This document shows, one piece after another, positions 2 through 64,000 of a stretch of DNA of 64,000 nucleotides. Each line of letters opens with the position of its first letter. Positions within the stretch are counted from its first letter, which is position 1. The stretch spans positions 8,726 through 72,725 of the IMG/VR virus record IMGVR_UViG_3300012122_000001. One strand, 5' to 3'. The notes under the pieces were generated by a model, which did not search any database, was not told the DNA's origin, and worked only from the letters and a program-made list of their open reading frames with translations. This DNA is from a virus. Its lineage: Duplodnaviria > Caudoviricetes. The translations under genes were made by a program, and so were the position numbers.

Positions 2-370
2 GGCGTCCGCGTGCGTGCAGGCGTAGTTCGACCGGCCCTTCAGCGTCTCGATGTCCGGCGCCGGGTAGTCGGTCGCGTACTGGTCCTGGAGGATCTTCTG
101 CGAGGTCAGCATGAAGGTCGACTCGCCGACCGTCCGGAGCGCGTTCGCGACCGTCTTGCAGGCGTCGGTCTTGCCCGCGCCCGTGGGGAGCTCGCCGACC
201 ACGAACCGCTTCCCGGCGGCGAACGCGGCGGCGGCTTTCTCCAGGAAGTGGGTCTGCTGGGGGCGGGGGGTTTTGCCTGGGGTGAAGTGCGTGAGAAGCT
301 GATCGCCCGTGAAGGCCCAAGGCTTCACATTTTTCTGGGGCACCGGGGGGACGACGTTCCTCGTGACCAC
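2..370 (-). CDS. DinG/XPD-family SF2 helicase, N-terminal part (runs off left edge)
   Basis: Not in the ORF track; translated by hand from GTG at 370 with AGGAGG SD upstream. Contains Q motif PRPQQ, Walker A GELPTGAGKT, motif Ia LTSQKILQDQY and the DinG signature LKGRSNYAC. Confidence 0.9.
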   Translation of the reverse strand, partial: MVTRNVVPPVPQKNVKPWAFTGDQLLTHFTPGKTPRPQQTHFLEKAAAAFAAGKRFVVGELPTGAGKTDACKTVANALRTVGESTFMLTSQKILQDQYATDYPAPDIETLKGRSNYACTHADA

Positions 371-579
371 GGGTTCCTCCTTCTTCTTCCTACCCGACCG
401 CGCGGTTCCTCCGCCTCGCGGCCGGGCTGTCCCTAGAGTCGCTGGATCTGGACCGCCGTACGTCCGAGTACAGACTGCGGCGACGTGAGCTTGTGAGGAC
501 CCCGGCCGCAAACGGAGCGGCGGCGGTCCATATCCAGAGACTCGGGTTCACTGCGCGCCGGGGTGGTCCTCACGCCTGT

Positions 580-607
580 AGTATAGCCGGAGATAGAACG
601 GATACAA
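580..607 (-). promoter_or_regulatory. sigma70-like promoter for the leftward (DinG) operon
   Basis: TTGTAT-N16-TATACT on the minus strand in an AT-rich intergenic patch. Confidence 0.55.
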
Positions 608-642
608 GGAAAAAGTGACGAAAAAAATAACGCCGATTTGCG

Positions 643-671
643 TTGACCCAGGGGAGCCGCCTATCTATAAA
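643..671 (+). promoter_or_regulatory. sigma70-like promoter for the rightward operon
   Basis: TTGACC-N17-TATAAA; ATG at 678 lies 6 nt after the -10 box (leaderless geometry). Confidence 0.75.
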
Positions 672-677
672 TAGGGC

Positions 678-938
678 ATGGCGAAGCCCGACCGGGTGAT
701 GTTGCCCCAGGTTAAGGCGGTTTGCCCTGTCTCAGGTCTGATGATCGGGACAAAAAGGATCGACACACACTACTGTAGAGCCAGCCTTTGCGCCAACGGA
801 TCCGTTCACGTCTACTGCGTTCTCCACATGTTCAAGGGTTTCATTAGTCATCCCCAGATTCTGGAGGCTTGGAATGTCGCCGAAGGCCACCTCAAAGCGC
901 AAACCCCAGGAGTCCGCCCCGTCGTCCCCGGCAGATGA
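678..938 (+). CDS. small Cys/His-rich hypothetical protein, probably leaderless
   Basis: ATG at the predicted TSS; several Cys/His residues. Overlaps the next gene by 65 nt, so it is uncertain. Confidence 0.45.
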   Translation: MAKPDRVMLPQVKAVCPVSGLMIGTKRIDTHYCRASLCANGSVHVYCVLHMFKGFISHPQILEAWNVAEGHLKAQTPGVRPVVPGR

Positions 939-2892
939 CCACGAACCCTTGGCACCGCCACCCGAAGCAGGGAACGGACACTCCGGCGAAGAGGAGACCG
1001 AGACACCTCAGCCGGAAGAAGAGCCCGCGCAGGTCCAGGTCGTCATGAAGGGTTCCGACAGAGCGGTCCGCGCGGCGGCGGGTCGGCTGTCCGGCAGGTC
1101 GGCGAAGCCCGCACCCGTCGTGACCCCGGCGAATGAGCCCGAACCTCCCGACATCGATCCGAACGCGGACCTTCTCTCGGACGGGAAGAACATGGTGATC
1201 GTCACGCGGCAGTATCCGCGCGTGCTTCACACCCACCAGGGGAAAATTCCGACGAACACTCGCGTCGGCGGGAAGTACGGATGCCCGACGTCGATCTCCG
1301 AAATCGAGGCCGACGTCTTCGCGCGCTTCGGCGGCCGGAAGTACAAGTGCTCGATCCACCCCGACACGTCGAACTGGGAAAACACGATCCTGGGATCCTT
1401 CACGATCGAGCATCCGGATCCGGATTCGGAGCCGTACATCGAAGGGATCACCGACGTCGAGCCTCCCCGCGATGAGCCGGAGATTCCGTCCGGCACCGAT
1501 CCGACTCTTCACGAGACGGATCAGCTCGTCAAGCTTCGCCAGGACGCGGAGCGCCGCATCGAGCGCGCCCGCCTTCGGAAAGAGGCGATGACGATGGAGC
1601 GCGAGGCGAAGCGCCTGGAGGCAGAGCTCGACGAGGACACGAACGGCAAGCCCGCGCCCCAGGTCCCGGTCGGCGAGTCGGAGGAAGTGAAGAAGCTCCG
1701 CGCGGATCTCGCCGCGACCCAGGCGGCGCTCGCAGAAAAGAAAGTCAACGATCGCTTCGACAAGCTGGAGGACTCGATCACGAAGCTCGCGACGGCGATC
1801 GCGACGAGCGCGACGGCGAAGCCCGCGGTGTCCAGCGACGAATCCTTCGCGATGCAGATGGTCAAACAGAGCCAGCAGCATTCGAAGGATATGATGGAGT
1901 TCATGAAGAGCGCCGCCAAGCCTCCCGCGGCGCCGGAGACCCTTGATGCGATGCTGGAGCGCCAGATCAAACTGAACTCCGCCTTCGGAAAGAAGGAGGA
2001 CTCCAGGATGACGCAGTTCCAGGAGCGTCTGATCGAGGACGCCCTGGACAGACTGACGAACGGCAGCGGCGACGAGCGCGGAGGCGAGCCCGACGAGGAG
2101 CAGGACGTCATCAAGTACGGCATCAAGCAGCTCACGCCGGTCCTCAAGACCTACGTCGAGAAGGTCATGGAGAAGGAAGCCGCGGGCGGCGCCGCCGTCA
2201 CGCCGGAGCGCGTGAAGGAGATCTACGCCGAACAGGCTGCGAAGGTCGCACGAGAGCTCGAAGCGAAGATGCGCGCGGACGGAATGCGGATCGCCGTCGG
2301 TCCGGACGGGAAGACGATGGCGCTTCCGGCGCCCAGGGGCAAGGGAGCCGTCGTTCCTCCGCGTCACGCGGGGACGAAAGTCGTCTCGCAGCACCGGACG
2401 TCGGAGGGCGTGGTCAAGACCGTCCACGTCACTCCGGAGAACATGAAGAAGAAGGAAGAAGAACCGAAGCTGGAGGGAGACGACGTGGTCAAGTTTGCCG
2501 AGTTCCCTGGGATCGGAGACAACGGCGGCACGCTGAAGATCCCGATTCCTCCGCCCCCAGGCGATCTGAAGTACGATCGCAAGGGCGTCGTCAACTTCAT
2601 CCTCGACTCGATCCGGTCCGAGATCCGTCAGCAGATCCCGCAGAACACTCCGAACGATTCGTTCGTGCCGGGTGATGCGCTCGAACTGCTCGACGCCGAG
2701 ATCCTGGACCGCATCGCGAAGGTCGACTCCGGCGAACAGGTCGAGAAGATCCTCGCCGAGTGGGGCGATCAGAAGAAGATCGACGAGATCAAGGCGGCGG
2801 GCAACGACGAAGCCGTCAAGTCCTGGCTCCGGCGCCTCGTCATCACGATCGGAGACGCTTACCGGAGCGCGGTGCAGGGGAAGGGCGCGTAA
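874..2892 (+). CDS. 672-aa hypothetical protein (acidic/Pro-rich N-terminus, central coiled coil)
   Basis: GGAGG SD, GC3-biased codons; no family motif recognised and no Walker A. Confidence 0.8.
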   Translation: MSPKATSKRKPQESAPSSPADDHEPLAPPPEAGNGHSGEEETETPQPEEEPAQVQVVMKGSDRAVRAAAGRLSGRSAKPAPVVTPANEPEPPDIDPNADLLSDGKNMVIVTRQYPRVLHTHQGKIPTNTRVGGKYGCPTSISEIEADVFARFGGRKYKCSIHPDTSNWENTILGSFTIEHPDPDSEPYIEGITDVEPPRDEPEIPSGTDPTLHETDQLVKLRQDAERRIERARLRKEAMTMEREAKRLEAELDEDTNGKPAPQVPVGESEEVKKLRADLAATQAALAEKKVNDRFDKLEDSITKLATAIATSATAKPAVSSDESFAMQMVKQSQQHSKDMMEFMKSAAKPPAAPETLDAMLERQIKLNSAFGKKEDSRMTQFQERLIEDALDRLTNGSGDERGGEPDEEQDVIKYGIKQLTPVLKTYVEKVMEKEAAGGAAVTPERVKEIYAEQAAKVARELEAKMRADGMRIAVGPDGKTMALPAPRGKGAVVPPRHAGTKVVSQHRTSEGVVKTVHVTPENMKKKEEEPKLEGDDVVKFAEFPGIGDNGGTLKIPIPPPPGDLKYDRKGVVNFILDSIRSEIRQQIPQNTPNDSFVPGDALELLDAEILDRIAKVDSGEQVEKILAEWGDQKKIDEIKAAGNDEAVKSWLRRLVITIGDAYRSAVQGKGA

Positions 2893-2895
2893 CGA

Positions 2896-3189
2896 ATGGC
2901 GGCGGACGACGTCGATCCGCAGATCAAGGCGCAGCGAGACCGGATCATCAAGGCGTTCGAGACGATCGGGTTATCGACGGCGAAGCTTCATGCGGCGACG
3001 GACCAGCAGGTCCAGGCAATCGGAGCACTTTTCGAAGCGATCGCAAAGGACAAGGACGGTCTGATCTGCGCGATCGACGATTTGATCGTCGAGATCCAGG
3101 GACTTCGGCAGGACGTGCGCGCGATCGCCAAGGCGACCGGCATCCAGGCGGGGCTCGCCTCGCTGTTCGGAGCCGCGAGGAGACGCTGA
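2896..3189 (+). CDS. small coiled-coil protein
   Basis: Directly follows the previous stop; heptad pattern; ends GLASLFGAARRR. Confidence 0.75.
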   Translation: MAADDVDPQIKAQRDRIIKAFETIGLSTAKLHAATDQQVQAIGALFEAIAKDKDGLICAIDDLIVEIQGLRQDVRAIAKATGIQAGLASLFGAARRR

Positions 3190-3204
3190 GGTTTCGTTTA
3201 TCAC

Positions 3205-3233
3205 TTGACATAGGATTCACAGTAGAGCAAAAT
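3205..3233 (+). promoter_or_regulatory. sigma70-like promoter
   Basis: TTGACA-N17-CAAAAT in an AT-rich intergenic region. Confidence 0.65.
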
Positions 3234-3275
3234 GTTATTCGTAGATCGGCAGAGAAGCTCGTAGGAGCAGAATAG

Positions 3276-3303
3276 GCCGCGGCGAAAGTCGCGGCTTTTT
3301 TTT
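3276..3303 (+). terminator. intrinsic terminator / attenuator
   Basis: 8-bp stem GCCGCGGC-GAAA-GTCGCGGC followed by T8. Confidence 0.85.
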
Positions 3304-3324
3304 ATGGGCCGAGATGGGGAAGAG

Positions 3325-3495
3325 ATGACGACGGTGATCTGCCCGAAGTGCGGACGTTTCGCACTGAAGGGTAGGTTCCAGATCGTCGAGACCATCTGCA
3401 ACGACCGCGATTGTCGCGCGAACTTCGTTGTAGAGGTGCTCGCGGACGGATCGACCGCGATCCGGACTCTTCCCCGACAGAAGGTTAAGGCGTAG
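3325..3495 (+). CDS. Com-like zinc-ribbon protein (alternative start 3304)
   Basis: CPKC-x15-CNDRDC spacing resembling phage Mu Com-type Zn ribbons. Confidence 0.6.
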   Translation: MTTVICPKCGRFALKGRFQIVETICNDRDCRANFVVEVLADGSTAIRTLPRQKVKA

Positions 3496-3666
3496 GGTCC
3501 ACCAGGGCAGACGGACCGAGGCCGCGCAACGCGGAGTTGACCTCGAAATGGTCCGTTCGTCTCACAACGGCGCCGCGCTCCGCGCATCTCATTCCTTCGT
3601 TCCTTCTTCTTCCTTGGGGCCCCGCGTCTCCGCGCGGGGTTCCTTCAATTTTCTTCCGGTGCCTCG

Positions 3667-5208
3667 ATGAGCTCGACCGTCGAAGGGCTCGAGCGCGGAG
3701 TCATCGGCACGGACAAAACCATCCAGAGAATGCACCGTCTGGTCGCGCTGGGAAAGCTCGACCCGACGATCCAGAAGATCGCGACCTGGATCCGCCTGGG
3801 CGTGCCCAAGGACGTGCGCGCCTCGACGAAGCTCGCGGCCGACGCGATCTTCAACTGGGTTCAGAAGCACGGTCTCTTCCAGCGCGACCCGTTCCAGATC
3901 GAGAAGATCGAGCATCCTATCGAAGCGATGCGGCCGATCATCGAGGCGCGCAAGGCCGGGACGTACACCGGACCGGCGCTCTTCGTCGGCGACTGCGACA
4001 CGATGGCGGGCGTGTACACGGCGAGTTTGCTCGGCGTGCTCGGCTTCCAGTATTCCTTCGAAACCGCCAAGGTCGATCCGGATCGCCCCGACGAGTTCTC
4101 TCACGTCTGGGTCTCCGCGCGGATCGGGAACGAGTGGTACCCGCTCGACCCGTCGACGCGCGGGGCATATCCCGGCTGGCGTCCTCCGGTCAAGCCGGAG
4201 CAGTTCAAACGCTGGCCGGAGGGACCGATCGAAGACGTCGTGAAAGGGTCCGACATGAGCGCATTCAACAGCGGCATGGGGGATAACGGAGAAGACGAAG
4301 GCGGCGACGAGCCCGTCATCGAGAACAACGATTCCCCCCTCACCGGAGTCGACGCCGAGTACGCCCAGGACTACATCGGATACGGGATCCCCAGGGACTT
4401 CGGCAGCGGCCCAGGCGTGATCCCGCCCGGCAACTTCGAGAGCCTCCAGCTCCTTCCGCCGCACGACACGCAGATCCCGGCGGCCGACCTGGAGCGGGAC
4501 ATGCATCTGCTCAAGGCGGCGCCGCGCCTGGACCCGTCCGAACGGATCCAGAGCCTCGCCGGTCAGCCGAACGACCACGGCAACCCCTACTATCGCGGGG
4601 GTGGTCGCCAGCCCTACATCAAGGTCGAGCGCAAGATGTACCCGCCCGGCTCGCGCTGGAACGAGCCGTACGGCAAGGACACCATCCGCTACCAGAAAAC
4701 CGACAAGTACATTTCCGTCAAGAGTCCCGAAACACCCGAAAGACGAGTGGAGGTCAAGATGGACCAGCCGATGCTGATCCGCAGGAGAAACGTCATGACG
4801 CCCCCTCAGCGGATCCCGTTCGGCGCAATGGACGGCATGGGCGACATCGATCCCAATACCGGGATCATGACCTTCGGCTCGACGCCCGCGCCCACGGCGA
4901 CGCAGACGGCAGCGGCGACCGCCGGAACGTCCGTCTGGGATTCGATCCTGGGCGCATTCTCGTCCGTCGCGAAGGCCGCCGGAACGATCGTTCCGTCGGT
5001 GCTCCAGTCGAAGACCGCGCAGGCCGTCGCGAGCGCGACGAACCGTCTCGCGGGCTCGAACGTGCTGACGGCCGGGCAGCTCACCAACCCGACGCCCTGG
5101 TACAAGAACCCCGTCACGATCGGCCTGGGGCTCGCCACGCTCGGCGGCCTGGGCTACGTCGTCATCAAGATGCGCCCCGGCATGGGCGGCCGGAGGCGTC
5201 GCCGGTAG
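3667..5208 (+). CDS. transglutaminase-like (papain-fold Cys-His-Asp) enzyme with C-terminal membrane anchor; candidate maturation protease
   Basis: GDCD, SHVW and PLDPS triad motifs; C-terminal hydrophobic helix IGLGLATLGGLGYVVI plus RRRRR tail. Confidence 0.8.
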   Translation: MSSTVEGLERGVIGTDKTIQRMHRLVALGKLDPTIQKIATWIRLGVPKDVRASTKLAADAIFNWVQKHGLFQRDPFQIEKIEHPIEAMRPIIEARKAGTYTGPALFVGDCDTMAGVYTASLLGVLGFQYSFETAKVDPDRPDEFSHVWVSARIGNEWYPLDPSTRGAYPGWRPPVKPEQFKRWPEGPIEDVVKGSDMSAFNSGMGDNGEDEGGDEPVIENNDSPLTGVDAEYAQDYIGYGIPRDFGSGPGVIPPGNFESLQLLPPHDTQIPAADLERDMHLLKAAPRLDPSERIQSLAGQPNDHGNPYYRGGGRQPYIKVERKMYPPGSRWNEPYGKDTIRYQKTDKYISVKSPETPERRVEVKMDQPMLIRRRNVMTPPQRIPFGAMDGMGDIDPNTGIMTFGSTPAPTATQTAAATAGTSVWDSILGAFSSVAKAAGTIVPSVLQSKTAQAVASATNRLAGSNVLTAGQLTNPTPWYKNPVTIGLGLATLGGLGYVVIKMRPGMGGRRRRR

Positions 5209-5213
5209 GTTCG

Positions 5214-5495
5214 ATGCGCTACATCCGCTACGTCAAGAGACCCGGCATCGGAGATTCCGTCACCGACGGACTCACGACCGGCTTCACCGCTTCGGTCGCC
5301 GAGGCCCTGGAGCCGAAGATCCGGACCATCCTGAAGGAGGACATCCTTCCCATGGTGATGGTGGGTCTCGTCGCGGGCGCCGTAGCGGCGTCGGTCATCG
5401 GATCCTGGTTCGCTTCGCGCCCCTCGCGGTCCGGAGTCCGGTCGAACCCGGTCTCCAGGATCCACATCCCTCTGCGTCGCCGGAGGACCGCATGA
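5214..5495 (+). CDS. small membrane protein
   Basis: One hydrophobic helix, N-terminal GIGD motif, basic C-terminus with RSNP. Confidence 0.75.
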   Translation: MRYIRYVKRPGIGDSVTDGLTTGFTASVAEALEPKIRTILKEDILPMVMVGLVAGAVAASVIGSWFASRPSRSGVRSNPVSRIHIPLRRRRTA

Positions 5496-8400
5496 GCTAC
5501 CAGGATCTCAAGTCCAGGATGGTCGCGCACCTCAAGAAGTGGGCGCGTGGAATGGTTGATTCCGGCGAGGGCATGAACTTCAGCATCGAGTCGGCGATTT
5601 ACTGGTTCGCGAACGACTACCACAACGGCGGCGGAAGCGAGCTCTACCAGATCCTCTCGACCTCGAAATTTCGTCCCGGTCCGTCTCATCGGTCGGTCGA
5701 CGATGAAGGCGACGAGATCGACAAAATGATGTACGAGGAGCTGGAGCGGTACTTCATCCCAAAAGGAAGAGCGAGGAACAACGGTCACACGGGCGTTCGA
5801 AAGAACCCTCCGTCCTTCATCCTGATCGACAAAGAGACCGGACTCGTCGTGTACACGAAGCGGGCGACCGGCGTCGGCAGCGCAGCGATCTCGGCTTGCG
5901 TGAAGCGTGGTCACGAGCTCGCGGACCAGCACAACCGCGTCTACACCGTCTTCCTGGACATCCGCGGCCTCTCTCGTGGCATGAAGGTCCATGTCCCGGC
6001 GATCTATGCGCTCGGGATCACCGAAGAGATCCATCCGGGCGGTCAGTCCGTCCGTCCGAATTCTCGCGGCGCCGTACGGAAGAACATCTTCACCTTCAAC
6101 AATCCGAAGCTGAAGTTCAGCGATCTCTCGGTCGGCGAGACGTTCGTGTTCGCCTCCCAGGACGATCCCAAGTTCCTGACCAGCGGAATGGCGCGCGGTC
6201 CGTGGATCAAGCGCAGCGCCAGGACGTACGAACACGTCGACGACGTCGGCAAGCAGATCTCGGAGCGGAGGTACGGCGGCGGCCATATCGCCGTCGGAAG
6301 CGCCTCCGTCGGAGTGAAGCGCATGAGCCTCGGACGGGAACTGCCGAAGCTCTGCCCTCACTGCGACGCCTCGTATATCGGCACGCCCCAGATGCACAAG
6401 TTCGAGTGCGCTCCCCAGGGCGGAGCGAACCTGTACCAGGAGAACCCGCGCCGCAGATCCGCTCGTCGGAACCCCACGATGGGATCCTACGAGGTCTTCG
6501 TCGGGAACATCGGGCAGGTCTACGACGGGAACGATCGGGCGAAGGCGCAGCACTCCTTCGACTACTACGTCGCCATGTCGAAGCGTACCAGCGGTCGCGC
6601 GAGCGGCGAGGATGTCGCCCTCCTCTGTGAAGGCGAACTCAGCCAGGAGTACATCGGAAGCAAGGGACGCGAGCGCGGAGATCATCGGCGCGGCGTCCGC
6701 CGGAACATCTTCACCTTCAACAATCCTCCGTCCGGCCCGGCAGATCCGGCCGCGGCGCGCGAGCTCGAGGTCTACATCGAGAACGACGCCGACCTCTACC
6801 GGCAGCAGTTCGTCCCGATCGTGAAGAATCTGATGCTGAAGCGCCGGAAGGGCGTCTACAACCGCGAGCTGGCGGTCAAGCTCTTCATGTACCTGATGGA
6901 CGCGGGCGCGAAGAAGTACGTCGCCGAGTACGTCCGCTCGTCGTCGCCCGGCGCGCCGATGCCGAAGATCGACGGCACCTTCAACAAGAACACGCGCCTG
7001 ATGGCCGCGCGGTCCTTCCTGGAGTCCTTCGAAGGCGAGGCGGAGCTCGGGAACTACGACCGGATGATCGGTCCGGTCTCGAACCCTCGGGGGGCAAACG
7101 TGCGGAAGAATATCTTCACCTTCAACAACCCGAAGCAGCGTCCTCTGAACGAGATGGAGAACGCTGCCAGTCTGGTCGGCCTGACCGTCACGACCTGGGC
7201 GCCGGGCGACGGCGTGACGCGCTACCGCTTCTTCAAGGCAGGCGGAAGTCGGTACGCCGACTATCACCAGGGCGGCGCTCTCTACACGGCGCTCGGCCGG
7301 AAGGAAGCGATCGCGTTCATCAAGTCGTACGGCGTCGGCCGTAGCCGGATGAATCCGCTGAACCAGAAAGAAATCGAGCAGATGCGCGATCGCGAGAGGT
7401 TCTACGTCGGTCGCTCTCAGAAGTACGGTTCCGAGGGGAAGGAAGCGGATGCCGCTCACTTCCGAGGCGCCGCGCAGGAGAGTCGGAACATTCGCGAGCG
7501 TCACCATGCCAAGGGCACGGATTGGTGGCCGAATCCCCCTGTCTGCTCGAACCCGCTCGTCCGCGGCGACAAGCTTCCTCACAACCTCCGGATGGAAGTG
7601 CGGAATCGGTTCATCTACCGCTGGACGTCCGACAACGATCGTCGCGCCGAAGTCTACGGCCTCTGCCCGCACTGCAAGACGCGGGGCGGGAAGCCCTCCG
7701 AGACCAACATCGCTTGCCGTCAGGTCCACCCGACGATCCCGCTTCAGACGGACGAGCAGTGGCTCAAGACGCACGCCTTCCACGTCACGAAGGCGGGTCG
7801 TCTCAGCGAGCGGCATAACCATGCGGAGCCGGGCTACATGGCCGACGACGAGACCAGGAAGAATCCGATGTCGCGCCGCGAAGCCGCAGGAGAGATCCGG
7901 GAGATCCGCGGCGCGAGAAGCAAGATGCGCTACTTCCATCGGCTCGGCCGTCCGGAAGCTGCCGAGTTCCAGGACGGATACGCTCACGGAGTCGCAGGAG
8001 CGGTTTACCGCCGCGGTCCGAAGTCCGCGCGTCGTGTCGTCGATCGCGCGGTCCGCTCGAATCCGCTCCTCCAGACCGTGATGCTGGCGAATCCTGGATC
8101 GGTGAAGACTTTCAGCGAGATGCAGGACGTGGGCAAGGCGAAGTACGTTGTGAACTATCACGACGGAGTGAAGGTGCATCGCGACGGTAGCCCGTTTTTC
8201 GACATCGCCATTTTCAGCAATCGGGCTAAGAAAGATCAGTTCGTCAGGAAGTTGGAGAGCCTTGGATTTACTCGGGGCGCCCTTCGGAACCCGCCGATCT
8301 CCACGCAGTGGGATCGGATGACGCGCCGCCAGCGCGAGGCGCTCCTGGAGATCGTCGGCTACGATCGTGACTTCTCCGGCGGCATGACGCTGTCCACCTG

Positions 8401-9133: not shown

Positions 9134-9143
9134 GAGAATTCAC

Positions 9144-10262: not shown

Positions 10263-10277
10263 GCATCAATCAAGGAA

Positions 10278-10421: not shown

Positions 10422-10457
10422 CCCGCAGAATGGTGCTTGATCAAGGAGATCGAGAGT

Positions 10458-54810: not shown

Positions 54811-55140
54811 TTCTTCTGGTCTTCCTTGCTGATAACGATCAGTGGCCCAAAGCTCTCCGCCGACCAGCTCACCGTGACGCAAATGATGAAGAGGTACAGC
54901 AGCGTCCACCAGGGATGAGCGTCGATGTACTGAATAAGCGTCATAGTCAAGCCCTCGCCTTCCTCTCTTTTGGCCTGATGTCCATCGACCGCTCGATGGC
55001 AGGAGACCGGTAATATACCGTCCGCCTCTTGCACTTCGGGCATGGCGGTCGCTCGATCGGCTCCCCGCGCATCTCGGTTCGGTAGCGACGACCCTTCCAG
55101 GCGCAAACGCCGCAGTGAACCGCGACCGTTTTCGTCTCCA

Positions 55141-56129: not shown

Positions 56130-56130
56130 G

Positions 56131-56748
56131 CTACCCTCCCACTTTCTTGAACTCGATCCCCAGGGACTTCACGCCGGACGCATCCTCCAGAAACGTGTCG
56201 ATGTCCTTCTGCTTGAGCATCTCGGAGAGCTTCTCGGAAGTCTTGTCCATCGCCTCGCGGACCATCTTCGAGAGCTGCCGAAGCTGGGTCCAGCGGTCGT
56301 GCGTATACGGCAGGATCCGGCCGCGGTCTCGACTGTTCATCACGGCGCCGGGCGCTCCGCCGTCGAGCCGATCTCCGGTGTGATTTTTCTCCTCGCGGTA
56401 CTTCGATCCGAAGCCGGACTCATTCTCCTCGCCGACCTTCCACTGCCGGAAGACATCCTTGCCTTTGTGCCTGGACTTGAAGAACCGGCTGTAGCGGAGC
56501 TCGATGTCGCTGTAGATCTCCGTATCGATCGCGATGACCGGCTCCCACTTCAGATCGCTCCAGCCCTTGATGTAGACCGTCGCCTGCTCGATCAGGTTCT
56601 TCAGGTCGGTCCCAGCGAAGGAGTTGTCCCCTGCCTCAACGGTGAAGGTCGGATTGTGCCTGCTGGAGTGATATCGGACGACCAGGGTGGTGTCCCAGTC
56701 CAGCTTGATCTCGTCGATCTTCTTTCCCTGTTCGGTGCCGCGGGTCAT
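56131..56748 (-). CDS. hypothetical protein
   Basis: 206-aa ORF with SD; no motif recognised. Confidence 0.7.
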   Translation of the reverse strand: MTRGTEQGKKIDEIKLDWDTTLVVRYHSSRHNPTFTVEAGDNSFAGTDLKNLIEQATVYIKGWSDLKWEPVIAIDTEIYSDIELRYSRFFKSRHKGKDVFRQWKVGEENESGFGSKYREEKNHTGDRLDGGAPGAVMNSRDRGRILPYTHDRWTQLRQLSKMVREAMDKTSEKLSEMLKQKDIDTFLEDASGVKSLGIEFKKVGG

Positions 56749-56858
56749 AAAGTCTCCGTGTACACGACTACTTGAGATTCGTCCGGAGCCGCTCACCAGG
56801 GCGCAGGACGCAGAGAGCCTTCAGTAGGCGCTCGAGGCCCTTGGTGTACCGGAGATAG

Positions 56859-57122
56859 TTACGCTTTTTCTTTCTCGGCATTCTTCAGCCCTTCGATCTT
56901 CTTCCCCAGGTAGAAATACGCCTTCTCGAGATCCCGCAGCAGGGTCGCGCCGCCCTTCTTCCCGGCCCTGGAGATGTACTTCCCAACGGTCCAGCAGAGC
57001 GCGTCTTTCTCGAGGCCCCAGGCCGCGAGGCACTTGATCGTCTCGTGCGGGTTGTCGGCGCCGCCGTAGTGCATCGAGTCGGCCTTGCCGTCGGATCCGA
57101 CCTCCCTCTTCATGCGCGGCAT
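56859..57122 (-). CDS. DUF3310-like protein
   Basis: HY......E.I...GKY..RAGKK...DLEKA.FYL motif. Confidence 0.75.
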   Translation of the reverse strand: MPRMKREVGSDGKADSMHYGGADNPHETIKCLAAWGLEKDALCWTVGKYISRAGKKGGATLLRDLEKAYFYLGKKIEGLKNAEKEKA

Positions 57123-57131
57123 GTCTTCTCC

Positions 57132-57908
57132 TCAGATCTTCGAATGTTCCGGCTTCCACTCCCCGTTTTCGCTTCGCTTGAAGTCCTGGAAGATCGCGGG
57201 CCAGCGGGCGACGGCTATCGAGCCGACCTTGTCGAACACCTCCCGGATCTCCGTCTCCGCGGACTCGGCCGTTCGCATTTCGAGAACGTGCCGGAGGGCC
57301 CGCATGTTGAAGGAGACCCCGATCGCCGTCGACAGGCCGATCGGCGCGAGGCGGCGCATCGCGGAGGTGATCTTCTTCTTGAGCGCGAAGTTGGACGTCG
57401 GGTCGTCGAGCTTGAAGTGGTCGGCCATCATGAGCTGGATCTGTTCGAGCGACCGGAAAGTCGTCTCGAAGAGCTCGACCAGCTTCGGATCCTGCTGCAT
57501 CTCCTTGGGCAGCCACAGCCCCAGGTCCGTCAGCCGGACGTAGCGGAGCGACTCCTGGGAGAAGGCGGTCCCGGCCCGGTGCCGGACGACCTCATGGGTG
57601 AAGACCCTGGAGACGTCGGCGAAGATCCAGTTCGAAACGGCGTGCTCCAGAACCGACCCGTGGCCGGATCCGATGATGTTCTTCAGGTACGGGGCGTTCC
57701 CCTCCCGGATCTTCGTGACGTTGGCGTTCAGGCCTGGGGCCCAGGAGCGGTAGCAGAGGCGCCCCATGGCTTCGACTAGATAGTCGCTGTCCGACTCGGC
57801 GTCCGTCTCCCAGTCGTCTCCCTTGACGTGGGCGAGGTACCGGTCGAACTCGGATCGGTTGACCCTGGTCTCACCGACCAGAAATACCTTGGGTTCGGTT
57901 CGATGCAC
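57132..57908 (-). CDS. thyX: flavin-dependent thymidylate synthase
   Basis: GHGSVLEH, SRVFTHEVVRHR...FSQESLRY signature, NMRALRH..E.R. Confidence 0.95.
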   Translation of the reverse strand: MHRTEPKVFLVGETRVNRSEFDRYLAHVKGDDWETDAESDSDYLVEAMGRLCYRSWAPGLNANVTKIREGNAPYLKNIIGSGHGSVLEHAVSNWIFADVSRVFTHEVVRHRAGTAFSQESLRYVRLTDLGLWLPKEMQQDPKLVELFETTFRSLEQIQLMMADHFKLDDPTSNFALKKKITSAMRRLAPIGLSTAIGVSFNMRALRHVLEMRTAESAETEIREVFDKVGSIAVARWPAIFQDFKRSENGEWKPEHSKI

Positions 57909-57929
57909 GTTCTGTCTCCTTCCTCTTCG

Positions 57930-58238
57930 CTATCGGATCGCGAGGCCCTTTGCCTCGGATATTCCGGACCGCTCCGCTTCGTCCAGGAGCTCCCTGAGTT
58001 TGTGGAACCGGAGGCCCTTCGGCAGCTTTTCGAAGACGGATCGCACGAGCATGTCGTTCACGTCGAGATCCAGAGCCCGACTGAGCCTCCGGACCATCTT
58101 CGGGGACGGCGGATTGAGCTTCCCTGTCTCGATTCCGCAGATGTACCCCTTGAAGGTCTGGGTGATCTGCGCGAGAGCGGACATGCTGTACTGCTTGGCA
58201 TGTCGTGCTTCACGAATCAGCTCTCCGAACGTTTTCAT
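57930..58238 (-). CDS. XRE-family HTH regulator
   Basis: FGELIREAR...S...LA.....YI..IETG...PPS pattern. Confidence 0.85.
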   Translation of the reverse strand: MKTFGELIREARHAKQYSMSALAQITQTFKGYICGIETGKLNPPSPKMVRRLSRALDLDVNDMLVRSVFEKLPKGLRFHKLRELLDEAERSGISEAKGLAIR

Positions 58239-58284
58239 GCTGCGCTTCTCCTTCTTCTTCCTTGTCCCTTTACCCGGTCGTTCG

Positions 58285-58827
58285 CTACTTCCTCGCTGCC
58301 TTAGGGACCTCCGATCCCTTGTTCTTCGGCTCCAGTTCCTTGACCCGCGCCAGGGCCTTCTTCATCCGATCGTCGTAGTCGACCATATTCCGGACCGCCT
58401 CCAGGCGCTCGCGATCGTGCTTCTCCACCTCCAGGTGCGCGGCGTCCCTGGCCTTCTGCATCGTCGTCATCGTGGTCTGCATGATGACGATCTTCTGCTC
58501 CGCGGCGACCGCCCGGTGCAGGGTGACCTTCTCGTTGTCCTGGAAGACCTCGAGCCGCCTCTTGAGGTCCACGAGCTCTTTGTGCTTGAGACCGACCTCG
58601 CGCCGGAGCCCATCGACCTCGGTCGAGAGCTCCTTGTCCGTCCGCGTCATCTTGAGCCTGAGGTTCTCGGCTTCGAGCTTGATGATCTGGCTGTTCTTCG
58701 ACGAGACGAGCTCTTTCGCGGACCGGAGATCTCCGGCCAGCTCGGCGAGACGCCCCTCGAATCGCCTGACCGTGAGCTCCAGCTCGATTGAATTTGCGGT
58801 CGGCGCGACGGATTCGGTCGGTTCCAT
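58285..58827 (-). CDS. coiled-coil protein
   Basis: Continuous heptad pattern. Confidence 0.75.
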   Translation of the reverse strand: MEPTESVAPTANSIELELTVRRFEGRLAELAGDLRSAKELVSSKNSQIIKLEAENLRLKMTRTDKELSTEVDGLRREVGLKHKELVDLKRRLEVFQDNEKVTLHRAVAAEQKIVIMQTTMTTMQKARDAAHLEVEKHDRERLEAVRNMVDYDDRMKKALARVKELEPKNKGSEVPKAARK

Positions 58828-58828
58828 G

Positions 58829-59419
58829 TCATCCCTTCTTTGTAATAATGAGAGTTTTCTCAGGCTCCGGAACGTGGTTTGAGATTAGCTCGCCGGACTC
58901 GATCTTCTGGTTGACGAACTTCTTCACGCCGGGGAAGTCCGTGTTGTCGTAATCGTGGAAGACGACGAACCCGCCGGGCGCCACGAACGAGCTGAAATGC
59001 TCGTAGTCCGACGCGACGGCCTCGAAGGTGTGCAGACCGTCGATGAAGAGCAGCGAGATCGGATTGAACCACCGAACGCACTCAGCCCGCTCGCGGACGG
59101 GAATGACGAAGCTCCCGACCCCTGCCAACGAGATGTTCGTGAGGAACGCATTGAAGGTCGGCTCAACCTCCCTGGTGGTCAGCTTCCCCTCGTGCGGGTC
59201 GACGGCGTAGACTCTGACGTCCGGATCCCCGAAGTCCTGGACGGCGATCCCCAGAACGACGGTCGATCGACCCTTGAAGCTGCCGATCTCGACGATCGCA
59301 AGGCCTGGGAACTCCCGGATCGCGTCGATCGCCGTCTGGTACAGAGGCCCCATCTCAGGCTCGTTGAACCAGCCGTCGATCTTCTTCGCGGCCTGGACGG
59401 CTCTATCTTCGCTAGACAT
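58829..59419 (-). CDS. SAM methyltransferase (Methyltransf_24-like)
   Basis: IVEIGSFKGRST, LLFIDGLH.FE and GG.VVFHDY motifs. Confidence 0.9.
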   Translation of the reverse strand: MSSEDRAVQAAKKIDGWFNEPEMGPLYQTAIDAIREFPGLAIVEIGSFKGRSTVVLGIAVQDFGDPDVRVYAVDPHEGKLTTREVEPTFNAFLTNISLAGVGSFVIPVRERAECVRWFNPISLLFIDGLHTFEAVASDYEHFSSFVAPGGFVVFHDYDNTDFPGVKKFVNQKIESGELISNHVPEPEKTLIITKKG

Positions 59420-60092
59420 TGGACAGATCCTTCTTCATCTGATCGGTCATCCGCTCGACCCAGCCGGTCACCTTCGGCAAACCCGCGTAGTGGACGATGT
59501 GGAGATCCTTCCGGTTGTCCGCGCGCCGGAGGGAGTGTAGACCGTTCCACCGGATCCCGAGATCCAGGAACTTGAAGCCATGGCGGGCCACCGCGAGGTT
59601 CGTGTAAGTCTGTTCGGACATCGGCTCACCCTTCGGGTTGAGCGGGAGCTCGAAGGCGTCCCGATGCGTCCGGTCGGCCAGCACTACCCCGGTGTTGAAG
59701 TAGGTGAAGCCGCGCTCCGCAACAGGCCGCTGGGTCATGATCCCGTAGAACGGTCCGTCCTTCTCCATCTCCCGGACGCGATCCGTGAAGTACTTTCCCT
59801 CTTCGAAGGCGGCGAAGACCCCCGCAGGAACCTGATCGAAGATCGACGGCGCCGTCGTCCGAACGACCAAGTCGGCGTCCAGCAGGAGGACTCGACCGTA
59901 CTTCTCCAGGAGACCGGCGATCTGGAACTTCTCCCAGTAGAACTGGTATCCGGGGAAGGCTCGGGCGCGCACAACGATCAGCTCGGCGCCGATCCGGTCA
60001 GCGTACGCCTGGATCGTTGGAAGAGAGACGGACGCGACGCGCTCGTAGTTCTTCCCGATGACGACCGTGACGATCGCGAGGTCTTTGCTCAT
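59412..60092 (-). CDS. glycosyltransferase, GT8-like
   Basis: LLLDAD, YFNTGV, EQ...N, WN and IVHYAG motifs. Confidence 0.85.
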   Translation of the reverse strand: MSKDLAIVTVVIGKNYERVASVSLPTIQAYADRIGAELIVVRARAFPGYQFYWEKFQIAGLLEKYGRVLLLDADLVVRTTAPSIFDQVPAGVFAAFEEGKYFTDRVREMEKDGPFYGIMTQRPVAERGFTYFNTGVVLADRTHRDAFELPLNPKGEPMSEQTYTNLAVARHGFKFLDLGIRWNGLHSLRRADNRKDLHIVHYAGLPKVTGWVERMTDQMKKDLSNV

Positions 60093-60895
60093 GGCTTCTG
60101 CGTGAGGACGGCCTTGGAGATGCGGATCCCGGAAGCGAGGGCGCTGATCGCGAAGGCACCTTTGTCCTGGGCGCCGCCGACCTTGGGGCCACCCAGCGGC
60201 TCCACGTTCGTCCAGTCCGACCGGAACGTCGTCACGTCCTTGCCGTCGACCTGCACGACGAGACCGGCCCGCCGGACCATGAAGACGACCGTATGCGGCT
60301 TCTTCACGGCAAACTGACGGCCGGGGGCGGGGGCGGAAGCCTTCGTGTGCCCATCCGGGCCTCCAGGCACCAGGATCGCGGAGCACTTCCCTTTTTGGAT
60401 GTCGAAGTAGTACTGACACTGGCGACCGCCTGGGATCTGGAGCGTCACCCCGATGTTGTCGTCACCCTCGGTCCGCTCCATCGTGAGCGTCAAGTTGTAC
60501 TCCTCGGAGGCCGGGGTGTACCGGATCTGGCAGGTACCGTGCTCGACGACGGCTGGAGCCGTCAGAAGAAGCGAGCCGTCCTGCTGGAACTTCCAGGCCC
60601 CTGCCAGGAAGTCCTTGTCGGTCTCGACCTTCTTGAGCAGGTCGACCGAGTCGAGCTTGTCCTTCTTCCCGAAGGACATCGTCGCGCCGGTCAGCGGGGA
60701 GACGGGCTCGGTCTTCTCGAAGCCCGTGACCTCGGAGCGTTTGACGACCATCCGGACGCCCTCGGGGGTGACGATCGTGTACGTCTCGCCCGTGTCCTCC
60801 AGGCTCTTGAAGTCGATCCGGCGCCCGTCCTTCAGGAGCACCTCGTCCGAGAAGCAGGGGACCGAAAGCGTCAGCAGAATCAGGATCGTCTTCAT
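60089..60895 (-). CDS. secreted/periplasmic protein with Planctomycetota-like architecture
   Basis: Signal peptide, D.V.LKDG..I...TP.G...V.R.EV domain, then a ConA/LamG-like beta-sandwich (DLL...D...G.W...L...Y.P..EY.L); own GGAGG SD. Confidence 0.65.
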   Translation of the reverse strand: MKTILILLTLSVPCFSDEVLLKDGRRIDFKSLEDTGETYTIVTPEGVRMVVKRSEVTGFEKTEPVSPLTGATMSFGKKDKLDSVDLLKKVETDKDFLAGAWKFQQDGSLLLTAPAVVEHGTCQIRYTPASEEYNLTLTMERTEGDDNIGVTLQIPGGRQCQYYFDIQKGKCSAILVPGGPDGHTKASAPAPGRQFAVKKPHTVVFMVRRAGLVVQVDGKDVTTFRSDWTNVEPLGGPKVGGAQDKGAFAISALASGIRISKAVLTQKP

Positions 60896-61030
60896 GGTCT
60901 TACCTCCTGTTTTCTTGGGGGTGTCCCAGTACGGGGACTTGCACTTCGGGCACATCCGGATCTCGCTCTGCCTGGGCGACCACTTGTGGGAGCACCTCTT
61001 GCACTCGAACTTCGGAATATTTACTTTCAT
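60896..61030 (-). CDS. 45-aa C2-C2 zinc ribbon, in frame with the secreted protein (no stop between them)
   Basis: CKRC.H.W.PR....CPKCKSPYWD; leaderless position. Confidence 0.6.
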
Positions 61031-61033
61031 ACT

Positions 61034-61065
61034 GGTAAGTTTACTTGTAAGTAAGTTTTTGTCAA
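61034..61065 (-). promoter_or_regulatory. leaderless sigma70-like promoter with ACTTAC repeats
   Basis: TTGACA-N16-TAAACT, ATG 7 nt downstream; three ACTTAC copies overlap the spacer and -10. Confidence 0.65.
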
Positions 61066-61066
61066 C

Positions 61067-61705
61067 TCAAAAATTGAAGTTTCGGTTGGTGATGTACCAG
61101 GGCCTACCCTGTTCATTGACTCCGATCGCCTTCTCCAGACCCCACTTCTTGATCAGCTTCACCTTCTGGACGGTCCCTGGAGTCCCCTTGGGTGTGCCCT
61201 CGATCTGGCTGCCGTGCATCGGGTCAAGCTCATGGAACCGATGATAGACCCTCCTCCCGAGAGTCATCCGGATCGCGTAGTCGTCGTCCTCGCAGTATCC
61301 GGGATAGAACTGCTCGTCGTAGAAGCCGATCGTCTGGATATTCTCCGGACGATGGATCTGGATAGAGAACTGGTGGAACGCCAGGAAGAGGTCGATGTCC
61401 TGGTGCTTCTCGAGCAGCTTTTTCGTCCGGTCGAGATGGGCGCCGCTCCAGATGATGTCGTCCTGGAGCAGGACGAGACCATTGAAGTCACGGTACTCGA
61501 ACGCTCTCCGAAGGAAGAGGTTCCACGACCCGGAGACGCCCAGGTTCTTTTCCGGCCGCTCGATCGGCACGTTGATGTTGATCTTCTGGTTTCCGTTGTC
61601 GAGGATCAGGACTTCGTCCGGAGGTTTGATGGATTCCAGGAAGGACTTGTTCCGGATCAGCAGGTCCGCGCGAGACAGGGTCGGGATGGCGACCATCAGT
61701 TTCAT
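61067..61705 (-). CDS. glycosyltransferase, GT2-like
   Basis: VAIPT, ILDNG, NLGVSGSWN, LLQDD and GFYDE.FYP.Y.EDDDY motifs. Confidence 0.85.
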   Translation of the reverse strand: MKLMVAIPTLSRADLLIRNKSFLESIKPPDEVLILDNGNQKININVPIERPEKNLGVSGSWNLFLRRAFEYRDFNGLVLLQDDIIWSGAHLDRTKKLLEKHQDIDLFLAFHQFSIQIHRPENIQTIGFYDEQFYPGYCEDDDYAIRMTLGRRVYHRFHELDPMHGSQIEGTPKGTPGTVQKVKLIKKWGLEKAIGVNEQGRPWYITNRNFNF

Positions 61706-62529
61706 TTCGGCGTTTCCGAAAAGTTCTTTTTAAGAAACTCTGAAAACTTCGAAACCGTGAACTCGACGAAAAGCATCCTGACGGTCTCGGGATAGTCTTT
61801 CCCGAACCCGAACGGAGAGGGGTTGTCGAAGTCGTGCCATTTGTATTTCGGCGGATACATCGTGAAGTTCGGCTTCCGCTCGTACCAGGACAAAAGGAGC
61901 AGCGCCGAGTGGGCACAGACCATTGCCCGCGACCGCTTGACGACCTCGGCCGTCCCTGGAACGGACAGCCTGTCCGTGAAGTCGATGATCCCTGGGCCGC
62001 TCGGCCGGGTCGGAGCATCCTTCCTGGCGTGCGGCCCCGCATAGGTCCGCCCCAGGAAGACGACCGGGATCCCGCGGACCTTGGCCGAGGCGCAGATGTG
62101 GACGACGGTCGGAAGCGGGATGTTCCGGTTCTCGATCTCCATCCCGGACGAGGTGGGCGCGATCCCCAGGAACGGCACCTTCGGAAGATCCGACTCGATG
62201 ATCTTGAGGTCATCCGGAGACGGGTAGAACTTGATCGGAGCGCGCGCCCTTGGCGGACGCTGCGGCGGCATCTGCTCCGGGATACCGGCGTCCTTCCGGA
62301 TCTGCGGATTATCGTACGGAGGATTGAAGAAGTGCTTGGACTTCACGATGTCGATCTGGGGCGCCTTCGGATGCCACTTCAAGATCTCGTCGGCAAACGG
62401 ATTGTGCGAGATGAGCGTCACCTTGATCCGCTCGTCCGGCTTGAGCGCCTCGATGTCCTCGTACGCCATCGTCTCGTGGAACCAGATGAAGCAGTCCCCC
62501 AGGCCACCACGAGCCTCGATCTCGATCAC
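61702..62529 (-). CDS. glycosyltransferase-like, GT-B (GT9-like)
   Basis: GGLGD, then ...R.IP, VVFLG, IDFTDRLS...AEVV..S..M....SAL pattern. Confidence 0.55.
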   Translation of the reverse strand: MIEIEARGGLGDCFIWFHETMAYEDIEALKPDERIKVTLISHNPFADEILKWHPKAPQIDIVKSKHFFNPPYDNPQIRKDAGIPEQMPPQRPPRARAPIKFYPSPDDLKIIESDLPKVPFLGIAPTSSGMEIENRNIPLPTVVHICASAKVRGIPVVFLGRTYAGPHARKDAPTRPSGPGIIDFTDRLSVPGTAEVVKRSRAMVCAHSALLLLSWYERKPNFTMYPPKYKWHDFDNPSPFGFGKDYPETVRMLFVEFTVSKFSEFLKKNFSETPK

Positions 62530-63959
62530 GGCTGTACCTCCATCAGGCGCCGGGCGACCCTGGAGGCCGCGGCGTCCCAGGTATACTTCTTGGAAATATT
62601 CAGGCGAAGCGCCTCACGCCGCCGGGAGACTTCCCGGCCCCCTCGGTAAACAGTCCGAAGGAGTTCCGACAGCTTCCGGATCGACGGCTTCTCGTACGAC
62701 GAGAAAAGCTGACCCTTGTACCAGTCGGAGATCCAGTCGCCTTCCGGGTACTTCCGGACCCCGTCCGGCTTGAACATGAACGTCTCGGTGAAGATCTCAG
62801 TGTGGCAGGTATTGTTGGGAACGATGACCGGGATCCCGCAGGCCGCCGCCTCGGCCGCGGGCAGGTTGAACCCTTCGCCACGCGAGGCGGAGACGTAGGC
62901 GTCAACAGCGGCGTAGATCCTGGAGATCCCGTGTTCGTCGAAGGAGCCCTCCAGCGTCCAGATCGGGACCTTATACTTCGCGAACTGCTTGTAGACCTTT
63001 TCGTTCCAGGCGGGCGGAGAATGGGTCAGACCGATCACGAAGTGGACGTGCTTGTTCCTCGAGAAGGCGTGCTCCATCGCATCGGCGACGACGTCCCAGC
63101 CCTTCCGGAAGCCCGGCAGGCCGATCGTCAGGAACACGAACCCGTCCGGCACCGCCATGAGGCCGCGGCGGCGCGTCGAGATCAGGCGGCACGTCGGAAG
63201 CGGCGTCCGCTTCTGCGGCCGGAAGATGATCGGGTCGATCCCCAGGGGCATAACCCTGCCTGGGAGCTTGATGCCTGAGTGCTTGAAGACGTCGAGGTTC
63301 CACTGGGACGGCGTCCAGATCTCGTCGAAGTTCGCATTGGCCCGCTTCACCATGTCGTCGTGTACACGGATCGAGCTCTCCTGCATCGTCCAGACGATCC
63401 GGTGGCGGGTCTTCTGGGAGATGTGGTCAGGACCCATCATCCGCAGAAGCGGCGCCCGCGGATCGACGAGGATGTTCTTGTGAACGTCGAGTCTCGACCT
63501 GAGATCCTCCTTCACATAGACCGGCTCCTTGTGCGTGTCGTCGATCCGGACGGACATGGAGTTCGCCAGCCGGAAAAGGATCTCACGGTTGGCCTTCCCG
63601 TAGCCGGTGTACTGGTAAAGGTGGCCGACCCAGAGGACCCCAGGCGGAGGCGCCTGCGGCATCTCCGCCTTGACGGCAGAGGATGAGAGCTTCGAGATCC
63701 GGTAGGCCTCGTCGAGGGTGATCCCCTTCGACGGGAACTCGACGACCGGCTGCGCCGACAGATCCTGCGTCCGCATGGAGGACTCACGCCAGATCCACGT
63801 CCTGGATAGGTGAAGGAACTTCGCGTCCTTCATTTCATTGAGCGTGATCGCAAGGTTGAGCGCCTCCCGACCTGGGGAGACGTCGTTCCGCTCCATCCAG
63901 CGGTTGAGCACTCGACTGGATGCCGGGGTCCTCCTGAAGAGAACCGAATCCAAAGACAC
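62526..63959 (-). CDS. glycosyltransferase, GT4-like with N-terminal extension (start uncertain)
   Basis: TGYG.ANR, WTMQES, EIW.PS.WN, RKGWD, SRGEGFNLP.AEAAACG.PVI and YTW...A motifs. Confidence 0.85.
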   Translation of the reverse strand: MSLDSVLFRRTPASSRVLNRWMERNDVSPGREALNLAITLNEMKDAKFLHLSRTWIWRESSMRTQDLSAQPVVEFPSKGITLDEAYRISKLSSSAVKAEMPQAPPPGVLWVGHLYQYTGYGKANREILFRLANSMSVRIDDTHKEPVYVKEDLRSRLDVHKNILVDPRAPLLRMMGPDHISQKTRHRIVWTMQESSIRVHDDMVKRANANFDEIWTPSQWNLDVFKHSGIKLPGRVMPLGIDPIIFRPQKRTPLPTCRLISTRRRGLMAVPDGFVFLTIGLPGFRKGWDVVADAMEHAFSRNKHVHFVIGLTHSPPAWNEKVYKQFAKYKVPIWTLEGSFDEHGISRIYAAVDAYVSASRGEGFNLPAAEAAACGIPVIVPNNTCHTEIFTETFMFKPDGVRKYPEGDWISDWYKGQLFSSYEKPSIRKLSELLRTVYRGGREVSRRREALRLNISKKYTWDAAASRVARRLMEVQP

Positions 63960-64000
63960 CCACCCGATTCCGTTGAACGGTCCCGCGACGGCAGGCTTTG

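Follow-up and report, generated by a model that had tools for sequence, protein, structure and literature searches.

A complete ~72.6-kb circular genome of an uncultured, probably tailless icosahedral virus distantly related to Salisaeta icosahedral phage 1

The DNA analysed here (the window, 64,000 nucleotides) corresponds to positions 8726–72725 of the IMG/VR contig IMGVR_UViG_3300012122_000001 (72,725 bp), i.e., 88% of the genome. Very probably it belongs to an uncultured tailless icosahedral virus of a prokaryote, which has a complete circular (or circularly permuted) genome of ~72.6 kb and is related to SSIP-1, the salt-lake phage Salisaeta icosahedral phage 1. The genome encodes a 317-amino-acid (aa) protein with a confidently modelled double jelly-roll (DJR) fold, carries homologues of SSIP-1 virion proteins in conserved order, and belongs to a group of similarly sized genomes; searches of the complete contig for tailed-phage families gave nothing over threshold. 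The passages cited here describe SSIP-1 as an isolated tailless phage, 100 nm across and membrane-containing, with T=49 symmetry and two major capsid proteins (PMC6260650, PMC6356626, PMC4958249).

The first 123 bases of the contig are repeated exactly as its last 123, IMG/VR assigns it to the class with direct terminal repeats (DTR), and CheckV gives a completeness of 100%. The genome therefore runs 8.7 kb past the left edge of the window, and the right edge joins the contig start. A protein database entry for the same contig gives 72,743 bp; the original terminal overlap would then be 141 bp, a typical assembler k-mer, which fits a circular or circularly permuted molecule of ~72.6 kb. A gene call based on GC content at third codon positions (GC3) yielded 90 genes, missing one open reading frame (ORF) of 428 codons. 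The circular genome consists of two blocks: ~38 genes occupy ~33 kb of the plus strand, and all others lie on the minus strand in a block of 39.6 kb, which continues from the window through contig positions 1–9236. The preliminary description of the window, made from its letters alone, had proposed both a ~33-kb same-strand virion operon and a circular two-operon genome extending past both edges, and the complete contig bears out this layout.

The AlphaFold2 model of the 317-aa protein, computed from a 44-sequence alignment, is all-beta with two barrels and has high confidence (predicted local distance difference test, pLDDT, 90.5; predicted template modelling score 0.85). Exhaustive comparison of the models with 48,161 PDB chains using VIA matched it to the major capsid protein of STIV (Z 11.1; 230 residues aligned, root-mean-square deviation 4.3), PRD1 P3 (Z 9.3), PM2 P2 (Z 8.9) and the capsid proteins of phiCjT23 (Z 8.6), PBCV-1 (Z 8.3), FLiP (Z 8.1) and EhV-201 (Z 8.0), and the faustovirus capsid was also among the fold matches. 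All 15 matches at Z ≥ 8 are DJR folds, with Foldseek in agreement, so the modelling confirms a DJR protein, the type of major capsid protein by which Bamfordvirae (Varidnaviria) are recognised. An internal duplication, suggested earlier for this protein, is not significant at the sequence level (z = 1.1), its double jelly-roll fold notwithstanding. A PDB profile search with the capsid family returned only noise, and the protein has no sequence match among 50,697 phage records. Its 107 homologues (43–85% identity) come in many cases from contigs of 64–75 kb.

Directly upstream lies the gene of a 212-aa all-beta protein, which is probably a single jelly-roll (SJR) capsid protein judging by its model: every structural match is a jelly-roll sandwich, the best with a VIA Z of 6.0. 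The earlier claim of jelly-roll capsid proteins thus holds well for the 317-aa protein and has a low-confidence model behind it for the 212-aa one. In three relatives (L007:8384-9028, L010:9180-9836, L009:9239-9823), the region of the first 25 codons of the 212-aa gene contains stops, and the homologues must start at GTG or TTG in a conserved GVPAA motif, so the N-terminal 25 residues appear dispensable. The third gene of the trio encodes a protein of 236 aa. Its leader is rich in Pro and Arg and closes with GGMGD, and the next ~190 aa have a predicted beta-rich character. As to the fold, the sole pointer is weak, a language-model lead to the barrel of P23-77 VP17 (score 0.76), and we regard the protein as a candidate vertex (penton) or third capsid protein. 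Profile-profile comparison of the 212-, 317- and 236-aa families revealed no mutual similarity. The capsid genes show the highest conservation within the module and a GC3 of 0.93. Both intergenic regions that bracket the 212-aa gene contain very stable hairpins (Table 1); these might determine how stable the transcripts are or in what ratio the two capsid proteins are made.

The two capsid candidates also lead to SSIP-1. Among the predicted viral structures of BFVD, the 317-aa model matches I1ZBI0 best (256 aa; E 6.7e-9; TM-scores 0.53/0.64), and the best match of the 212-aa model, the sole one below 1e-3, is I1ZBH9 (211 aa; E 1.7e-4). The GenBank record of SSIP-1 (43,788 bp, circular) contains adjacent "structural protein" genes for gp46 (211 aa) and gp47 (256 aa); because the accessions are consecutive, the lengths equal and the order the same, we infer that I1ZBH9 and I1ZBI0 are gp46 and gp47. 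A third link comes from the 513-aa product of the plus-strand block, whose N-terminal domain aligns with SSIP-1 gp34 at 24.5% identity (BLASTP 3e-8 and family hidden Markov model, HMM, 5e-8, both within the SSIP-1 proteome) and finds SSIP-1 as its sole match among the 50,697 phage records (E 3e-4). A Cys-His-Asp triad and a GMG[DE] motif occur in both proteins, and each has a membrane anchor at its C-terminus. When family HMMs of genes conserved in at least four related loci were searched against the SSIP-1 proteome, gp34 was the only match, and the 317-aa capsid family scored marginally against gp47 (6.6 bits). Counterparts of three SSIP-1 virion proteins thus stand here in conserved order, one recognised by sequence (gp34) and two by fold (presumed gp46 and gp47). 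In our view, this kinship is the strongest argument for a tailless virus.

The capsid gene is carried by ~20 contigs of 64–75 kb, an undescribed and widespread group; we found no description of such a group in the literature, and its closest cultured relative is SSIP-1, a distant one. Three of the five IMG/VR relatives have DTRs, a CheckV completeness of 100% and lengths of 69–71 kb. Across ten related loci, gene order is conserved over 874–12892 and 20972–29967. Three fully read relatives share the capsid trio, the gp34-like protein, an Arg-rich protein and several small membrane proteins, as well as the membrane glycosyltransferase, AAA_24, DinG and GT4 genes. In ESM-Atlas, the clusters to which the 212-aa and 236-aa proteins belong carry mostly the automatic taxonomy label "Uroviricota", and such genomes seem to be kept among the tailed phages in databases.

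For signs of a tailed phage, Pfam was run on 80 ORFs of the contig, every large one included, and PHROG and NCBIfam were run on the large ones as well. In these sequence profile searches, nothing from the families of terminase, portal, HK97 capsid, tape-measure, tube, sheath or baseplate proteins exceeded the threshold; six-frame searches of the contig with Terminase_6N, Phage_portal and Phage_capsid yielded nothing over threshold either, and Terminase_6N was also not found in five relatives. The absence of terminase, portal, HK97 capsid, tape-measure and baseplate genes, reported in the preliminary description for the window, extends at the level of sequence profiles, with folds examined for two proteins, to the complete contig. 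A Phage_capsid match inside the 513-aa protein (11.9 bits against a cut-off of 24.2) was dismissed as low-complexity noise from an Ala/Thr-rich linker.

The "Uroviricota" labels, the replication genes of common phage types and the long variable 1213-aa protein together with a fibre-like cassette would also suit a very divergent tailed phage (Caudoviricetes), with terminase, portal and HK97 capsid beyond the reach of profile HMMs and the DJR protein serving as a decoration, receptor-binding or enzymatic accessory. We consider this quite improbable. The sub-threshold capsid match could be counted in its favour, yet it reaches half of the cut-off and falls in the linker of the gp34-like protein; likewise, PHROG calls the nearest family of a 642-aa minus-strand ATPase "terminase large subunit", whereas the protein has the motifs and PDB matches of the HerA/FtsK superfamily. 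The 80 ORFs yielded no family of portal, tail tube, sheath or baseplate proteins, conservation and codon bias within the module are highest for the DJR protein and its neighbour, and the best viral structural relatives and the sole phage sequence relative belong to SSIP-1, tailless by electron microscopy.

The ATPase in question carries the motifs GGGKS, IIDPEGEF, VIVDEAH, GRKRG and ATQR, followed by a C-terminal coiled coil and two winged-helix-like repeats. Its family profile matches only HerA (1e-11), VirB4 and TrwB in the PDB and no terminase; these matches and the HerA/FtsK motifs show that it is not a terminase, and the PHROG label was rejected. Homologues of the ATPase domain form 3,192 clusters at 50% identity, with the coiled coil and repeats shared by the aligned full-length members, and the family is found across diverse viral contigs; the genomic contexts of distant homologues were short or uninformative. 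The gene sits outside the virion block. Apart from the replication genes, no further conserved P-loop protein was found, and the 642-aa protein is a candidate packaging ATPase.

A different challenge comes from cellular enzymes with the same fold. PNGase F and PHM match the 317-aa model too, and GH172/DUF2961 and PNGase F score like viral capsids (Z 11.0 to 8.5), which could point to a plasmid or other non-viral mobile element whose jelly-roll protein is a cellular-type DJR enzyme (GH172/PNGase-like), accompanied by glycosyltransferases. At least four glycosyltransferases and three methyltransferases are indeed present, together with the HerA/VirB4-like ATPase, and no integrated copy was found in GTDB representatives. 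Nevertheless, such an element is very improbable: the searches found no family for relaxases, type IV secretion systems, partition or plasmid replication; the contig counts as a complete virus in IMG/VR and CheckV, in agreement with its initial classification as a virus and not a plasmid or island; and the DJR gene lies within a 33-kb block of co-oriented ORFans with transmembrane (TM) and spike-like proteins. Moreover, SSIP-1 gp34, gp46 and gp47 are annotated as structural proteins of a real virion, and the sizes of the related genomes cluster tightly at 64–75 kb, as for a capsid-limited genome.

Genes are tightly packed, with nine 4-nt start/stop overlaps, and an AGGAG-type motif precedes 45 of the 90 genes, three times the background rate of 16%; this packing and the Shine-Dalgarno motifs indicate a prokaryotic host. 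They also speak against a eukaryotic virus (polinton-like or a small giant-virus relative), as do the failure to find polymerase B, mRNA-capping, transcription or A32-type genes, the phage-type or bacterial-type character of AAA_24, DinG and ThyX, and a closest relative that infects a bacterium. Other DJR viruses of 30–100 kb are known only from eukaryotes (mriyaviruses, for example, are given as 35–45 kb in the part of PMC11253617 cited here), the capsids of PBCV-1, EhV-201 and faustovirus are among the fold matches, and the primase-helicase is D5-like; even so, a eukaryotic virus seems extremely improbable.

The host is most likely a Shine-Dalgarno-using prokaryote, presumably a bacterium. 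Planctomycetota, proposed as the host phylum in the preliminary description, found no support: the genome has no tRNA genes, and no provirus was detected in 185,579 GTDB species representatives, where the sole match was a 14-kb viral contig binned in a Thermoanaerobaculia metagenome-assembled genome (MAG). Another relative is binned in a Thermoplasmata MAG. These two are the only relatives that carry a name; their bins are mutually contradictory and probably artefacts of binning. The search for ThyX relatives returned no taxon names.

Several points weigh against a tailless, SSIP-1-related virus and have to be kept in view. The virus is known from its genes alone, and an internal membrane is suggested by the TM proteins and the SSIP-1 kinship. 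A confident fold was obtained for one protein only, the 317-aa one, which cellular DJR enzymes match as well as STIV does (GH172/DUF2961, Z 11.0), and the 212-aa model is poor (pLDDT 60.7), with PDB matches (Z ≤ 6.0) below the stated noise level of the tool. The assignment of I1ZBH9 and I1ZBI0 to gp46 and gp47 follows lengths and accession order, not names. Profile-based absence of terminase, portal and HK97 capsid could miss very divergent members. Finally, the hallmark FtsK-HerA packaging ATPase is, as far as sequence comparison goes, not a core gene of the group: the 642-aa protein is absent or 27–31% identical in relatives whose capsid proteins are 54–75% identical, and a homologue occurs in the tailed haloarchaeal phage ChaoS9.

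Table 1. Features of the window (positions counted from its first nucleotide; products named as predicted).
Feature	Position	Strand	Basis or remark
Virion/late block	678..33154	+	~38 tightly packed co-oriented genes; nearly all without family match; synteny in relatives
672-aa acidic protein, at start of block	874..2892	+	No family match; family alignment
513-aa virion protein	3667..5208	+	Homologue of SSIP-1 structural protein gp34
1213-aa basic protein, isoelectric point (pI) 10	5492..9133	+	Position matches 2319-aa SSIP-1 structural protein gp43
372-aa protein, pI 12.0	9144..10262	+	41–68% identity in relatives
Structured intergenic RNA upstream of 212-aa gene	10263..10410	+	Two perfect GC-rich hairpins; minimum free energy −93.4 kcal/mol, z = −6.75 vs shuffles
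212-aa all-beta protein	10458..11096	+	Most conserved gene of group, 63–85% identity; GC3 0.93
Intergenic hairpins between 212-aa and 317-aa genes	11097..11238	+	10-bp GC stem with UUCG loop; z = −3.2 vs shuffles
317-aa double jelly-roll capsid protein	11239..12192	+	AlphaFold2 model, structure comparison
236-aa protein	12182..12892	+	50–86% identity in relatives
Variable host-recognition cassette	12902..20900	+	Genes at 12902, 13382, 13642, 14868, 15180, 15630, 16336, 17099, 17979, 18837
Calx-beta + BNR/Asp-box propeller protein, last cassette gene	18837..20900	+	Pfam
Small-protein cluster, mostly TM-anchored or basic	20972..29967	+	Includes GT1-family glycosyltransferase
Membrane-anchored GT1-family glycosyltransferase	25746..27086	+	Family match
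GP88-family protein	29976..31079	+	Family match; near block end
PAPS-reductase/DndC-like protein	31564..32898	+	Family match; end of block
Minus-strand block, window part	33325..64000	−	SprT-like, helix-turn-helix, ThyX, MazG-like, three methyltransferases, GT1/GT4/GT8 glycosyltransferases
DUF7694/phrog_7839 domain protein, 428 aa	37567..38853	−	ORF outside GC3 gene call
642-aa HerA/FtsK-superfamily ATPase	44109..46037	−	Pfam DUF87 3e-10; phrog_2666 5e-13
ThyX	57132..57908	−	Family match

Around the capsid trio, the large plus-strand proteins have no match in Pfam, PHROG or NCBIfam; the block's exceptions with a family match are the Calx-beta and BNR protein, the membrane glycosyltransferase, the GP88-family protein and the PAPS-reductase-like protein (Table 1). 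A crude hydropathy scan predicts TM segments in 11 plus-strand proteins, in keeping with the many membrane-anchored proteins described at the outset; the spikes and the basic protein of that description likewise have counterparts in the propeller protein that closes the cassette and in the 372-aa product of pI 12.0.

The 672-aa protein, encoded by a core gene of the group (28–45% identity in three full relative genomes), begins with a conserved globular part, continues as a coiled coil and ends in a further domain at the C-terminus. A role as an ATPase was considered and rejected, as the protein's Walker-A-like GPDGKT motif varies across the family alignment. In the 513-aa protein, the N-terminal Cys-His-Asp domain is transglutaminase/papain-like and is accompanied by GMGD motifs, a C-terminal TM helix and a poly-Arg tail. 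The 1213-aa protein ranges from 608 to 1259 aa across relatives, with conservation limited to the C-terminal third, and might be a capsid-size or cement protein. The 372-aa protein combines an Arg-rich N-terminal half (repeated RRRNP) with a hydrophobic, Gly-rich C-terminal half, which makes it a candidate DNA-condensing or membrane-associated core protein.

A motif of the form G-[MLI]-G-[DE] recurs near the leader or linker ends of several virion proteins, with sites at 2400–2450 (672-aa protein), 4270–4290 and 4850–4870 (513-aa protein), 5240–5260 and 12225–12245. It is kept in relatives (FPGIGDNGG/FPMLGENGA) and present in SSIP-1 gp34 (RARGMGEPT). We speculate that the Cys-His-Asp enzyme may cut at this motif during maturation.

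Within the variable cassette, the N-terminal 35 aa (MPAPLNPNLWPSVLHDE...) are almost the same in the products of 12902–13381 and 15180–15623, whose beta domains are unrelated, and the genes at 17099–17974 (291 aa) and 17979–18836 (285 aa) are tandem paralogues. The cassette is replaced in relatives, a pattern expected of exchangeable vertex spikes; the shared 35-aa N-terminus is its sole conserved part and for this reason looks like a common vertex-attachment adaptor. In the small-protein cluster that follows, the genes starting at 22604, 23951, 24636, 25746, 27864, 28538, 28836 and 29563 are core genes. The GP88-family and PAPS-reductase/DndC-like proteins at the end of the block are probably not structural. 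Two relatives have the GP88-family gene at 76–79% identity in a different genome location, which implies that it has moved between modules.

Upstream of the window, the minus-strand block encodes a PrimPol-D5 primase-helicase, an AAA_24 ATPase and a DinG/XPD-like helicase, the last 170 codons of which fall at window positions 2–511. Promoter and terminator scans at both strand-switch regions gave nothing above chance.

Taken as a tailless virus, the element would divide its work between the two blocks. The plus-strand block would build the particle: the long basic protein and the Arg-rich protein would organise shell and DNA, the membrane-anchored Cys-His-Asp enzyme would be a part of the particle, ~ten small membrane proteins would serve an internal lipid layer, and the exchangeable cassette would supply vertex spikes. 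The minus-strand block would replicate the DNA by means of the primase-helicase, the AAA_24 ATPase, the DinG-like helicase and ThyX, and would modify DNA and sugars.

The cited part of Yutin et al. 2018 (PMC5894146) gives ~7–18 kb for described prokaryotic DJR viruses, a rule of small size that a 64–75-kb group with a confident DJR capsid breaks. The unusual size claimed in the preliminary description stands, being far above both this range and the 44 kb of SSIP-1; its list of comparators, however, omitted SSIP-1, the largest cultured virus of this build. If our reading holds, the present virus is the largest of this build. By volume scaling from SSIP-1 (T=49, 44 kb) and not from a structure, its shell would need T ~60–75. 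The group gives SSIP-1, an orphan outlier since 2012, a family; its adjacent small jelly-roll and DJR genes bear on the origin of DJR capsids from single barrels, and with no conserved packaging ATPase, how such a large genome gets loaded becomes a question. A bolder proposal, which we find conceivable and rather short of probable, is that these genomes and SSIP-1 constitute an undescribed, deep lineage whose members are large tailless phages, with a shell of SJR and fused DJR proteins intermediate between Helvetiavirae and Bamfordvirae, that packages 65–75 kb in an undescribed manner, with neither a conserved FtsK-HerA nor a terminase motor.

Among known systems, SSIP-1 is similar in having a circular double-stranded DNA genome, a same-strand late block that runs from a giant structural protein through a smaller one and a ~210-aa protein to a DJR-like protein, several small TM proteins after the capsid genes, and no terminase or portal found; both capsid candidates find their best viral fold matches in its presumed gp46 and gp47. 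It differs in size (43.8 kb against 72.6 kb), and a single protein can be aligned by sequence. The two viruses seem to differ in their ATPases: in SSIP-1 the candidate is the structural protein gp40 (SSIP-1 24775–25737), whose Walker A and B motifs (GEKGSGKST ... IVVDSVS) are RecA/KaiC-like and for which the present genome has no equivalent, and no counterpart of the HerA-like ATPase was found in SSIP-1. The Arg-rich protein, the replication module and the glycosyltransferase/methyltransferase set are not shared either.

With PRD1 (Tectiviridae), PM2 (Corticoviridae) and STIV (Turriviridae), the virus shares a DJR major capsid protein (Z 8.9–11.1 over 216–241 aligned residues) and membrane-protein and spike genes within the late block. 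Unlike it, these viruses have genomes of 10–18 kb and a conserved, small packaging ATPase (~200–250 aa) encoded inside the structural module; the present genome has an additional abundant small jelly-roll protein, and we found no sequence similarity to any protein of the PRD1/PM2/STIV group.

The cited part of the literature groups SSIP-1 with the vertical single jelly-roll viruses (PMC4958249). P23-77, IN93, SH1 and HHIV-2 of this type (Helvetiavirae) resemble the present virus in encoding two major capsid proteins side by side, and more weakly in fold (HCIV-1/HHIV-2, Z 6.1–6.4 on one barrel, besides the VP17 lead); their genomes are 17–31 kb, and the 317-aa protein has two fused barrels in place of a single one. 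Cellular DJR proteins (GH172/DUF2961, PNGase F and PHM) share its fold with equal scores (Z 8.5–11.0), but they are enzymes in cellular contexts and show no sequence similarity to the 317-aa protein, whose gene stands in a virion-type operon beside homologues of SSIP-1 virion proteins.

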